A stretch of DNA of 64,000 nucleotides from an uncultured Gemmatimonadota bacterium (GCA_964519015.1 CAZFHZ010000004.1:3479-67478); one strand, 5' to 3'. Numbered from the stretch's first letter, positions 27,302-34,445 are shown. Numbers and translations: made by a program. Notes: generated by a model not told the origin, from the letters alone.

Positions 27302-27982
27302 ATGAAGAACCGACTTCTGATCCCCGCTTTGATCCTCCTGGTGACGCCGGCCCTCCGGGTCGGGGCCCAGGAGACCGACCTGGACCGTCGCGTCCGGGCC
27401 TTCCTGGACAGCCATGCCCGGCAGTGGCGGGACATGAACGTGCCGATGGTGGACGGCCAGGCGCTTTACGACGTGATCGTGGAACACACGTACACCCGGG
27501 CCGTGGAGGTGGGCACCTCCACCGGGCACTCGGGGATCTGGATCGCCTGGGCCCTGAGTAAGACCGGGGGCAAGCTCATCACCATCGAGATCGACGAGAG
27601 GCGCCACCGCCAGGCGGTGGCCAACTTCGAGGCGGCCGGCCTGAGTGAATATGTCGATGCCCGGTTGGCCGACGCCCACGAACTGGTGCCTCAACTCACC
27701 GGCCCCTTCGACTTCGCTTTCGTGGACGCCGACAAGGACTGGTATACCCAGTACTTCAAGTGGTTGCTGCCCAAGCTGGAGGTGGGGGGCTGCTTCACCG
27801 CCCACAACGTCAGCGCTCCGTCCGGCCAGGGAGGGCGCGGCGGTCGGGGTGGACGCGGCGGCATGGGCATGGCCGGGACGGCGGCCTTCGTCCGGGAACT
27901 GATGGCCACACCGGGCCTGGAGACCACCTTCTTCCGCTCCGGCGGCGGTCTGTCCATCAGCTACAAGAAGCCGCCTGAGTAA
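27302..27982 (+). CDS. Secreted class-I SAM-dependent O-methyltransferase (caffeoyl-CoA OMT-like, family 3) with Gly/Arg-rich insert
   Basis: Signal peptide MKNRLLIPALILLVTPALRVGAQ; …VEVGTSTGHSGIWIAWALSKTGGKLITIEIDERRHRQAVANFEAAGL…FDFAFVDADKDWYTQYFKWLLPKLEVGGCFTAHNV…; insert PSGQGGRGGRGGRGGMGMAG before C-terminus …GGGLSISYKKPPE. Confidence 0.75.
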   Translation: MKNRLLIPALILLVTPALRVGAQETDLDRRVRAFLDSHARQWRDMNVPMVDGQALYDVIVEHTYTRAVEVGTSTGHSGIWIAWALSKTGGKLITIEIDERRHRQAVANFEAAGLSEYVDARLADAHELVPQLTGPFDFAFVDADKDWYTQYFKWLLPKLEVGGCFTAHNVSAPSGQGGRGGRGGRGGMGMAGTAAFVRELMATPGLETTFFRSGGGLSISYKKPPE

Positions 27983-27997
27983 GCACAGCAGCGGTGT

Positions 27998-29113
27998 TTA
28001 GTACCCCGGCGGGCGCTCCGGCAGAGGGTAGAGGGTCACACCCTCCCGCGCGGCCGCCAGCACCTTCGAGAGACTGACCACAACCAACTTGGCGGTCGGG
28101 CTCGACAGCAGATAGACCCGGTCGCCGAGCACGACCAGGTCGTCCCAGGTGGCATGGTTACCTTCTTTGACCAGGTTGACCCCGAAGCGGCCGAAGGAGA
28201 CGGGGTGGAGCGCCCCCGTGGCCAGGTCGATGACGGCCAGGTTATAGAGCGGTCCGCCAACCAGGAGTTGATCTCCGATCTGTACCCCGCCCCCGAAGAT
28301 GGCCACTGCGCTAGCGGCACGGACGGCGGGGGCCCGGCGCTCTTCCAGCGTTTCCTGCCAGGCGGGGGCGATTAGGGGGAAACCCTTGTCAATCTCCCAG
28401 AACCAGTCGATCGGCTCGCTTCCAAGTCGCACCAGCCGCGGAACGTGCCGGAAGAGCAGCCAGGGAGAACCGGTTTCACCGATCAGATCCACGACTCCTT
28501 CTAAGAAGGTGCGGACACCCGGCTGCCAGGGATCGGCAGCCACTATCGCTCCGGTCCTGTCGTATTCGGTGAGCAGGGTGTCCGGCCGACCGGGAGAGCC
28601 GGTGAAATACTCCTCCACCGCCGGGTTGTACCGGTACTTGGCGACCAGGACCGTGCCGTGATCGGTCAGAAACACTTCCGGGGGGTGGGAAGCCCGGGTG
28701 AGGACGCGGAATCCACCCCGATAGCGGCCCTCATAGTCCAGGAACTCGATCCGGTTGCTCCGGCTCATGAAACCGTCCAGGACGGCCAGCGTGCCGTCCT
28801 GGACACAGATGTCGGCAATCCCGCTGAACTCCCCCGGTCCCTCTCCGAGCCGGCCGATCTTGCGGATAAGGTTCAGCTCGGCATCGAACACGTAGACCGC
28901 ATGCAGTCCCTGGTCGGCGATGAAGAGGAGCGGACTGTCGACGGCCGCGCTGACCGGCCGGTAGACCGGATAGCCGGGCAGATCGGTATGGACCTCGAAG
29001 TCGGTGAGTACCCCGCCCAGGGCGGGCCGCTTCTTCGGATCGCTCGAGGAGCCGCATGCCCCGCTGATCATCAGCAGGACCAGAAGGGGAGCGATCACCG
29101 TCCGCTTCCTCAT
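27998..29113 (-). CDS. NHL-repeat/6-bladed beta-propeller lipoprotein, paralog A
   Basis: Internal ATG 29113: MRKRTVIAPLLVLLMISGAC|GSS lipobox; …GRLGEGPGEFSGIADICVQDGTLAVLD… NHL-type blade. Confidence 0.55.
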   Translation of the reverse strand: MRKRTVIAPLLVLLMISGACGSSSDPKKRPALGGVLTDFEVHTDLPGYPVYRPVSAAVDSPLLFIADQGLHAVYVFDAELNLIRKIGRLGEGPGEFSGIADICVQDGTLAVLDGFMSRSNRIEFLDYEGRYRGGFRVLTRASHPPEVFLTDHGTVLVAKYRYNPAVEEYFTGSPGRPDTLLTEYDRTGAIVAADPWQPGVRTFLEGVVDLIGETGSPWLLFRHVPRLVRLGSEPIDWFWEIDKGFPLIAPAWQETLEERRAPAVRAASAVAIFGGGVQIGDQLLVGGPLYNLAVIDLATGALHPVSFGRFGVNLVKEGNHATWDDLVVLGDRVYLLSSPTAKLVVVSLSKVLAAAREGVTLYPLPERPPGY

Positions 29114-29126
29114 CCGATGACTCCGC

Positions 29127-30347
29127 TCAGTGATAATGCAGTCCCTCCACGGCCGGAACGATCCGGTAAACGATAGGTATCTGCTCATCGGTCTCTGGCA
29201 GAGTACGAATGCTCATAAGCTGGCCATCTCGGATCGAGAACAGCTTGCCCGGGAGGTGCGCGCGACCCAAATAGCGGCCCTCCGAGTCCACCACGTGCCA
29301 CCAGGCGGCATCCACAGCCCAATTGAAGACGTTGCCCTCAACATCGCGCAGCCAGAACCAGCCTCGATCGTCAGCATAGATACTCGTGCTGAAACCAAAC
29401 CGTTCCGCGAAGACGACCTGTTGTCGGATATCCTCCGACGGCAACCGGCCCTCGGCGGTGGCCAGACTATCCATGAATGTGAAGTACCGGTTCCTGAACG
29501 CAGCGTCGATGGGACGCTCCTGCTGGTCGATCCGGATGATCCGGCGCAGTACCCCCAGGGGGGAGAAGATCTGGATGAGTGGTTGGTTTCCTTGGGCGAG
29601 AATGATCTCGCGTTCACGAGTGACGGCCATAGCCGATGAACCCCCGAAGAAGACGACGGACAGACGTCCCCGATAAGTTCCTCCCAGTCCGGACGGGTAG
29701 GTGACCCTCGATTCCGGCACGAACTCACCCCGCACGATGGCCACCGTGTCACCTGTGGTCGCCCGCGTGATGAGGGCTCGCGGCCGAGTGTAGTGTACAT
29801 CGGTCAGCCGCTGACCTTCCCAACTGATGCCGATCAGATAATCGCGATTGGAAACCAGGACGTTTGGTACTCCACCATTCGACTGCCGGAAGGAATCGAG
29901 GAAACACCCGTCGGTGGTTACGCGGCTGGCCCGTTGAGTTCCGTGATCGTAGATCGTCAGGGTGTCGCCATCGAGAGCGGTAATCTCGGGACCCCGGTAC
30001 TCCCCGGGGCCGTAGCCACGCCGGCCGAATGTGCACCGGTACCTTCCGTCGGCCTCGTAGACGACGATCCGCCCTTTCCTCCCATCCACCACGTAGTACC
30101 GGCCGTCCATGCCCCGCTCGAAAGAGGCGACGCCCCATAGCAGCGATGCTTCTTGGGCGGAGTCCTGTTCCAGCCGGAACAGTTCCTCGAACCGGAAGAG
30201 CTGCTCAGCATAGGCCGGACCACCGGTGGTCTCGGCCACCCGGACGCCCTCCTCGGTGTGGGTGCGAAAACGATGGCCGCCCGGTGGGCCGCCCCCACAG
30301 CCGGACACGAGGATAACGGCCGCCAGTACGGGGCCGATCCGCGGCAT
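29127..30347 (-). CDS. NHL-repeat/6-bladed beta-propeller lipoprotein, paralog B
   Basis: MPRIGPVLAAVILVSGC|GGG lipobox; …RYYVVDGRKGRIVVYEADGRYRCTFGRRGYGPGEYRGPEITALDGDTLTIYD…; about 65% identical to paralog C with clear DNA-level similarity. Confidence 0.6.
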   Translation of the reverse strand: MPRIGPVLAAVILVSGCGGGPPGGHRFRTHTEEGVRVAETTGGPAYAEQLFRFEELFRLEQDSAQEASLLWGVASFERGMDGRYYVVDGRKGRIVVYEADGRYRCTFGRRGYGPGEYRGPEITALDGDTLTIYDHGTQRASRVTTDGCFLDSFRQSNGGVPNVLVSNRDYLIGISWEGQRLTDVHYTRPRALITRATTGDTVAIVRGEFVPESRVTYPSGLGGTYRGRLSVVFFGGSSAMAVTREREIILAQGNQPLIQIFSPLGVLRRIIRIDQQERPIDAAFRNRYFTFMDSLATAEGRLPSEDIRQQVVFAERFGFSTSIYADDRGWFWLRDVEGNVFNWAVDAAWWHVVDSEGRYLGRAHLPGKLFSIRDGQLMSIRTLPETDEQIPIVYRIVPAVEGLHYH

Positions 30348-30423
30348 GATCAAGCTCCTGGTCAAGATCTGCCCGAGGAAAGGAACAACATCAAGCAGAC
30401 GCACCGTTACGAATCCCGTTTAT

Positions 30424-34183: not shown

Positions 34184-34261
34184 CGGGCTCCTGGTCGAGG
34201 GACCGCCCGGTTCCGGTAGTATCGAGAGGACGGATCCGGAGGGCAGGCGTTTATCACCGTC

Positions 34262-34305
34262 CGGGAACACAAACGCCCCCTGGAGGCGGTTCATCCTCCA
34301 GGGGG
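34262..34305 (-). terminator. Rho-independent terminator downstream of tRNA-Asn
   Basis: 11-bp perfect inverted repeat CCCCCTGGAGG/CCTCCAGGGGG (34276-34286 / 34295-34305, 8-nt loop) followed on the minus strand by GTTTGTGTT. Confidence 0.65.
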
Positions 34306-34313
34306 CATCGGTC

Positions 34314-34389
34314 TGGCTCCGGCGGAGGGACTCGAACCCCCGACCAATGGATTAACAGTCCACCGCTCTACCAGCTGAGCTACGCCGGA
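34314..34389 (-). tRNA. tRNA-Asn (anticodon GTT)
   Basis: Minus strand TCCGGCG-TA-GCTC-AGCTGGTA-GAGC-G-GTGGA-CTGTTAA-TCCAT-TGGTC-GGGGG-TTCGAGT-CCCTC-CGCCGGA-G-CCA: 7-bp acceptor stem, D/anticodon/T arms, GTTCGA T-loop, encoded CCA, anticodon GUU flanked by U33/A37; close to E. coli tRNA-Asn. Confidence 0.9.
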
Positions 34390-34445
34390 GTGTCTCGGTC
34401 CGGATGCTCCTCATCCGGGACTTCATAAACTGCGCCAAACCGGTC

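Follow-up and report, generated by a model that had tools for sequence, protein, structure and literature searches.

We analysed a 64,000-nucleotide stretch of DNA from an uncultured Gemmatimonadota bacterium (GCA_964519015.1 CAZFHZ010000004.1:3479-67478; called the window here, with a G+C content of 67.8%). Five consecutive open reading frames (ORFs) on the minus strand, at 27998-34180, encode paralogous lipoproteins with NHL-type blades. In the order E-D-C-B-A, they lie downstream of a tRNA-Asn gene and converge with a gene for a secreted O-methyltransferase (OMT). Gene E (32972-34180) encodes a lipoprotein of 402 amino acids (aa) that is predicted to fold into a six-bladed NHL-type propeller. 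Its paralog D (31732-32931, with an alternative start at 32967) has 399 aa, and the start at 32931 agrees with a 399-aa protein on record. C (30479-31732, 417 aa) and B (29127-30347, 406 aa) are the closest pair, with 66% identity in protein and 71% in DNA, whereas all other pairs share 24-33% identity. A (27998-29113, 371 aa) is recognisably family-like only in blades 1-2, and its C-terminal half lacks a confident structural model. Each of the five genes contains a single copy of the segment encoding FGRxGxGPGEF (repeat family D2), and each is equipped with a Shine-Dalgarno-like motif, a start codon and a signal peptide of its own. A hidden Markov model (HMM) of the family detects no further member in the window.

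A preliminary description of this DNA, made from the sequence alone, had already listed five minus-strand NHL-blade lipoproteins, with B and C as the closest relatives and a tRNA-Asn gene and terminator upstream, and our analysis agrees with it on these points. It had also described the genes as tightly packed. This is true of D and C, since the start of C overlaps the stop of D (TGATG), but the gap from E to D is 38 nt if D begins at 32931, and the spacer from C to B is 131 nt (74 nt with a GTG start for B).

All five proteins are predicted envelope lipoproteins. We searched for a lipobox of the PROSITE PS51257 type, i.e., a charged N-terminus, a hydrophobic region and the pattern [LIVMFWSTAG]2-[LIVMFYSTAGCQ]-[AGS]-C near the N-terminus. 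It is present in 5 of the 5 window proteins, with Gly or Ser after the Cys, and in 49 of 61 family members, and the lipobox Cys is 97% conserved in the 61-sequence family alignment. Beyond this signal, the proteins resemble PF17170 (DUF5128, called "6-bladed beta-propeller" at NCBI), whose gathering cut-off is 22.9 bits. A (33.0 bits), E (32.7), B (26.8) and C (23.1) pass this threshold, but D (20.3) does not; the matches span about 90 of the 321 model positions (about 42-131). The HMM searches that the preliminary description proposed are therefore positive for four proteins with PF17170, but DUF4221, which it also named, matches none of A-E. Our own family HMM, for which we used homologues of E but left out A-E, aligns with E and D from end to end and with most of C and B, and in A it detects homology only in blades 1-2.

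These two blades are also the only ones that retain the NHL signature in A-E. The residues common to all five proteins are D89, G109, G112, G114, P115, G116, E117, D137, R142, G150 and G355, and with the exception of G355 they fall within blades 1-2, in the segment with similarity to NHL repeats. Structure prediction, likewise proposed earlier, gave a confident model for E but not for A. For E, AlphaFold2 with a 61-sequence alignment reached a predicted local distance difference test score (pLDDT) of 92; behind a Sec/lipoprotein signal peptide, the protein has a complete six-bladed propeller fold like those of PDB entries 4RAA and 3S9J, in which a long helix (residues 274-291) separates blades 4 and 5. 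For A the pLDDT is 57, a poor result, with low confidence past residue ~160. The family profile also matches the NHL domain of TRIM71 (E = 1.8e-68).

Among NCBIfam models, the only match is a sub-threshold, NHL-level one to ScyF, whose cut-off of 350 bits is far above the 19-38 bits obtained. In the 61-sequence alignment, every His column is conserved at less than 70%, and no His is common to A-E; more generally, no set of His, Tyr or Arg residues is conserved across the paralogs. The PADLOC defence-system models do not match A-E, and they match the OMT only through a generic methyltransferase domain. Our literature search found no paper on DUF5128/PF17170, DUF4221 or DUF4934. Papers on NHL repeats together with lipoproteins concern unrelated proteins, and a paper on the "lid" of a TonB transporter concerns another lipoprotein family; no TonB-dependent transporter was seen adjoining any of the arrays we examined. 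A-E are new members of a large propeller family that is already catalogued but unstudied, which fits the earlier remark that none of them was recognised as a member of a characterised family.

In this genome only, the upstream neighbour of the array is tRNA-Asn(GTT) (34314-34389, minus strand), which was detected by ARAGORN and scores 71.5 bits with Rfam RF00005. An 11-bp hairpin with a T-run lies 3′ of the tRNA (approximately 34266-34305, minus strand; core detected at 34288-34274) and is a probable terminator. It is followed by an array leader (leader 1, 34181-34258, minus strand) that consists of GGTGATAAACG, ~60 nt and the Shine-Dalgarno-like GACCAGGAGC, before the ATG of E. A diverged copy of this leader (leader 2, 30348-30427, minus strand; repeat D12) precedes B, and consists of GGTTATAAACG, ~60 nt and GACCAGGAGC, before the ATG of that gene. 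The shared pattern of ~80 nt can be written as GGTxATAAACG ... GACCAGGAGC ... ATG. On both strands of the window, the heptamer ATAAACG occurs at two sites only (34254 and 30423), and the combined pattern is confined to the same two sites, with lengths of 77 and 79 nt. The similarity of the leaders to each other has a z-score of 5.1 by shuffling, yet one control using real sequence was nearly equal. Because the global alignment score alone is unconvincing, we judged the homology of the leaders by the motifs that are unique to them in the window. A riboswitch or other structured leader was considered and rejected: Rfam found only the tRNA, and the consensus fold of the leaders is weak (-6.6 kcal/mol). 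No inverted repeats flank the leaders.

The spacer from C to B contains a relic as well. Just after the stop codon of C and abutting leader 2, the 3′-terminal 46 nt of the OMT gene are present a second time (30426-30471), with 93% identity to 27939-27984 (repeat D4). This fossil marks a former junction of C with the OMT gene, and the join of two array units. Because a copy of the OMT tail and a second leader lie between C and B, the array consists of two head-to-tail units, namely leader-E-D-C-tail and leader-B-A-OMT. E-D-C and B-A may accordingly be separate transcripts driven by the two leaders, and the single transcript envisaged in the preliminary description is doubtful given the second leader upstream of B.

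To compare haplotypes, we aligned the window with three related metagenome contigs (L004, L091 and L007) at the anchor formed by the OMT gene and an adjacent permease gene. The contigs have 83-90% DNA identity to the window, and at this anchor they carry two array genes (L004 and L091) or different junction genes (L007). L004 has the order MarR-like gene, E (79% identity to the window), C (82%), OMT (92%) and permease (90%). Its C orthologue directly adjoins the OMT gene, and B is absent. Homology with L004 breaks precisely around the D cassette (31746-32939 in the window, absent from L004) and around leader 2-B-A, and 44 nt of the OMT tail are common to both flanks. Exactly leader 2-B-A would be lost if the two OMT tails recombined with each other.

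On its permease side, L091 is 88-90% identical in DNA across 8 kb, with the order OMT-permease-DUF134-NifX-GH2. Its array begins after a MarR-like gene with a fusion, in which the leader and signal peptide of E are joined to the mature part of D (82% identity between D orthologues) at the lipobox-coding TGCGGCGG. The next gene is a mosaic whose 5′ end is C-like (92%) and whose middle is B-like. In L007, an orthologue of A (95% identity over 96 aa) is next to the OMT gene. Homology of the window with L004 and L091 begins at leader 1, and neither contig has a tRNA upstream of the array. At more distant loci, with an OMT of 68-78% identity, this position is free of propeller genes. The preliminary description regarded the locus as accessory and suggested synteny as a check for variable presence, and the differing gene content at one anchor bears it out.

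The gene upstream of the array leader in L004 (2-292) and L091 (1-1038) is divergently oriented, encodes a MarR-like helix-turn-helix protein (346 aa in L091), and is absent from the window. The protein could regulate the array in those genomes. A further contig, L002 (CAYUVJ010000507.1, from a Gemmatimonadota metagenome-assembled genome [MAG]), has at 1700-1910, downstream of an S41 peptidase gene, a tRNA-Asn that is conserved only to the anticodon stem. Beyond that point the sequence is unrelated and includes a hairpin and T-run of its own, and the array-leader signature GATAAACGG follows ~135 nt later. ARAGORN finds no tRNA in this region of L002; either the tRNA is truncated or the assembly is chimeric.

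These junctions show that the array is remodelled through recombination at short stretches common to the paralogs: the ribosome-binding regions, the lipobox-coding segment and the duplicated OMT tail. The outcomes are gain or loss of whole genes, swaps of signal peptides and mosaic genes, and close relatives therefore have different gene sets at one chromosomal anchor. If genes were gained, the route could be tandem duplication or capture of an allelic array.

Composition and substitution rates add to this picture. The G+C content at third codon positions (GC3) is lowest in B (0.725), followed by D (0.77), while it is 0.83 in C and 0.80-0.92 in flanking genes; E and C carry host-like GC3. The earlier impression of a lower G+C content in B and C is thus right for B, but in the second case the low value belongs to D. 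Given the low GC3 of B and D, a more distant donor is conceivable if genes were gained. Ratios of nonsynonymous to synonymous substitution rates (dN/dS) for orthologue pairs are 0.30 for E, 0.21 for C, 0.31 for D and 0.14 for the C-terminus of A, and B versus C gives 0.27; for comparison, the OMT has a ratio of 0.10 and the permease one of 0.23. Pairwise and sliding-window analyses detected no positive selection, as no 40-codon window has a dN/dS above 1. All retained paralogs are intact, and purifying selection acts on each of them. The synonymous rate (dS) is uneven along single genes, ranging from 0.1 to 2.0 in C and D (30479-32931) compared with L004 and L091. This range fits recombination between alleles or paralogs, and suggests patchy gene conversion or allelic recombination within these genes.

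The OMT gene (27302-27982, plus strand) encodes a 226-aa secreted class I enzyme of the cation-dependent type, and 15 nt separate its stop codon from that of A. The protein matches PF01596 with 67.3 bits (cut-off 22) and has an N-terminal signal peptide that is conserved across homologues, in line with its earlier description as a secreted S-adenosylmethionine (SAM)-dependent O-methyltransferase. Its translation contains VEVGTSTGHS, FVDADKD and AHN, which we take to be the SAM-binding glycine motif and the Asp/Asp/Asn metal-binding residues by analogy with caffeoyl-CoA OMTs. The insert that had seemed unusual is an Arg/Gly-rich loop after the AHNV motif, which varies in length and is present throughout the OMT family.

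We scanned metagenomes with the OMT and obtained 80 loci with 54-85% identity, of which 42 include at least 1.5 kb downstream of the OMT gene. A member of the propeller family occurs in 2 of the 80 loci (L052 and, weakly, L031), as opposed to 22 with a permease beside the OMT, in either gene order. Because of this difference, we conclude that the OMT belongs functionally with the adjacent permease, and that it is a neighbour of the array by local history rather than its partner. The proposal that OMT and propellers form one module is not supported by these data. The permease (25855-27276, plus strand) belongs to the APC family of amino-acid permeases and is the conserved partner of the OMT as well as the syntenic anchor of the locus. 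An exported SAM-dependent enzyme is thus paired with a permease, both in loci L008-L070 and at 25855-27982 in the window.

Adjoining the permease, at 24829-25562, is a syntenic pair encoding a DUF134 protein and a NifX/NifB-type (Nitro_FeMo-Co) protein; the latter has a His-rich C-terminal tail, HGHQHGHDHDHGHGHGHRH. Further ORFs on this side encode a GH2 protein and a histidine kinase. The other flank encodes an S41 peptidase, thymidylate kinase, a tetrapyrrole-type methylase, NAD synthase, a CN hydrolase, SSB, MlaD and HPr kinase. The S41 peptidase has 75% identity to its counterpart in an uncultured Gemmatimonadota MAG. A search of genome contigs with this peptidase, made for synteny, returned only a 1.9-kb Gemmatimonadota contig and one unrelated match. 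An exact-sequence look-up of window proteins returned no record for the OMT, E or the protein labelled P0011.

The propeller family is large and widespread, rather than specific to this lineage as had been supposed. With E as query, we found 75 relatives, nearly all with 400-450 aa and PF17170, and either unnamed or called "6-bladed beta-propeller". An exhaustive profile search gave 19,917 representatives (at 50% identity) with E <= 1e-30, many of which are giant NHL-repeat proteins. The best 150 profile matches include dozens of single-domain, full-length members of 410-450 aa, and Acidobacteria and Planctomycetota are among the named sources of the family. Members are found singly, in pairs or in arrays, and no neighbour is constant among the loci examined; neighbours include tyrS, PadR-MacB genes, toxin-antitoxin pairs, phosphodiesterases and kinases. 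A 5.87-Mb genome (L001, ERZ25072999) has nine family ORFs within 21 kb, in three clusters. At 8540-21290 of this locus, one ORF encodes a 276-aa chimera with the family N-terminus and a Cys-rich C-terminus, and another encodes a 364-aa member that lacks a signal peptide. Two of the clusters are overlapped at their starts by other genes, a 57-aa ORF and a gene for a 150-aa zf-C4_ClpX protein.

We considered three other explanations of the locus. The propellers might be extracytoplasmic enzymes, such as lactonases or lyases like peptidyl-alpha-hydroxyglycine alpha-amidating lyase (PAL), with a small molecule or peptide at the cell surface as the joint substrate of propellers and secreted OMT. 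The weak match to ScyF, which belongs to the scytonemin cluster, would fit this idea, as would the adjacency of OMT and array in the window, L004, L091 and L007. However, the OMT is distributed with the permease, and no OMT was found near the family members we examined outside this lineage (L001, L006, L087, L089, L092 and L093). Moreover, the genes converge, so a shared transcript is impossible, and the paralogs lack a common set of candidate catalytic residues, making this explanation very improbable. Somewhat less improbable, though still doubtful, is the horizontal acquisition of a genomic island by integration at tRNA-Asn, as the preliminary description suggested. The array is indeed 3′ of this tRNA, B and D have a lower GC3 than flanking genes, relatives with a more divergent OMT lack the array at the anchor, family members elsewhere are often beside toxin-antitoxin genes, and the leader signature in L002 is downstream of a damaged tRNA-Asn. 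On the other hand, the 25-nt 3′ end of the tRNA has no second copy in the window with up to 3 mismatches allowed, and the ORFs scanned over ~16-44.5 kb match housekeeping or sensor families and include no integrase or transposase. In the closest relatives the array is beside the MarR-like gene without a tRNA, E and C resemble the host in GC3, and the internal junctions indicate recombination among resident paralogs or alleles. The array thus lacks the hallmarks of a tRNA-integrated island.

The third explanation is a contingency locus of the antigenic-variation type, in which a constant promoter and signal peptide are recombined onto alternative cassettes, and surface lipoproteins are diversified by positive selection to escape phages, predators or toxins. 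The L091 fusion, with its crossover at the lipobox, is what such a mechanism might produce, and the whole-gene differences between close relatives, the mosaic C/B gene and the uneven dS also accord with it. By contrast, the complete set of expression and export signals on every gene argues against silent cassettes, the leaders lack flanking inverted repeats, dN/dS is 0.14-0.31 with no sign of positive selection in any window, and the defence-system models found no match. The explanation also presupposes that the lipoproteins would be exposed at the cell surface. We consider it unlikely, if a little less so than the island.

Among known systems, PF17170 proteins such as BF0058 of Bacteroides fragilis (PDB 4RAA) are of the same type, i.e., lipoproteins or exported proteins of ~350-450 aa, with NHL-like first blades and a six-bladed propeller, and A, B, C and E are at or above the Pfam cut-off for this group. 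However, sequence identity is only 11-13%, and the array proteins represent Gemmatimonadota-type subfamilies with the helix between blades 4 and 5. The DUF4221 protein BVU_1028 of Bacteroides vulgatus (PDB 3S9J) has 10% identity. The NHL domains of Brat, Mei-P26, TRIM2 and TRIM71 bind RNA or protein but, unlike the array proteins, are eukaryotic and cytoplasmic; with ~280 aa, they lack the N-terminal strands and the helix insert. The NHL sensor of Mycobacterium tuberculosis PknD (PDB 1RWI) is extracellular, but it is fused to a transmembrane Ser/Thr kinase, is highly symmetric, and is neither a lipoprotein nor found in paralog arrays. PAL (PDB 3FW0) has a Zn-binding His triad with a catalytic Tyr/Arg in its central cavity, to which the His pattern of the array proteins offers no counterpart.

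In its genetics, the array recalls the Vsa/Vlp proteins of Mycoplasma and the Vsp/Vlp proteins of Borrelia, which are variable lipoprotein families that recombine at conserved 5′ ends. Here too, tandem lipoprotein paralogs are involved, and recombination in the leader, signal or lipobox region puts a different mature protein behind one leader, as in L091. The systems differ in that all genes of the array appear, from their sequences, to be expressible, and the organism is an environmental bacterium. Silent cassettes, invertible elements and positive selection, moreover, were not detected in our data.

Our explanation, which we think moderately probable as a whole, is that the locus is a recombining accessory array, as the haplotypes show, of envelope lipoproteins that would serve as non-catalytic binding modules. 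Under this hypothesis, the propellers would be held at the membrane, in the periplasm or at the cell surface; the variable parts of the propeller would give each paralog a ligand or partner of its own, and an altered gene set would alter the repertoire of the cell. A binding role is suggested because the nearest structural relatives are binding domains, the paralogs share no candidate catalytic residues, and they are conserved yet dispensable. Taken by itself, the idea that the propellers are non-catalytic modules with paralog-specific ligands is, in our view, about evenly balanced between right and wrong.

Several observations weigh against this interpretation. The four haplotypes fit either loss in the relatives or gain in the window. 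The leaders are only modestly similar outside the two anchor motifs, at a level that one control almost reached, and a promoter scan, which is uninformative for this phylum, found no promoter. The C-terminal half of A lacks detectable family similarity and is poorly modelled. The proposed binding role is drawn from the fold, the closest structural relatives and the absence of conserved candidate catalytic residues, and active sites specific to subfamilies could be masked in a mixed alignment.

A more ambitious version of the recombining array is a cassette-shuffling system, in which a fixed leader and signal peptide, together with short 5′ handles (the ribosome-binding region and TGCGGCGG), are used by strains to swap, add or delete propeller heads that differ in binding specificity. 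We regard this as improbable on present evidence. If true, an environmental phylum would have a population-level repertoire like the variable lipoproteins of pathogens, built of NHL propellers, and this would point to a role for the DUF5128-type family, which despite its very large size is listed merely as a domain of unknown function.

Tandem lipoprotein paralogs are common, and the most interesting features of this array are its clean cassette behaviour, the crossover at the lipobox and the fossil junction. These features do not reveal the function of the propellers, but they make it more approachable. A tempting but false association is also corrected, as the secreted OMT pairs with the permease and not with the propellers. 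The four haplotypes at one anchor amount to a natural experiment, in which cassettes are exchangeable while each is under purifying selection. This combination argues for specificities that are distinct and useful but dispensable, and the pattern hints at the comparisons and binding screens that would uncover what these proteins do.

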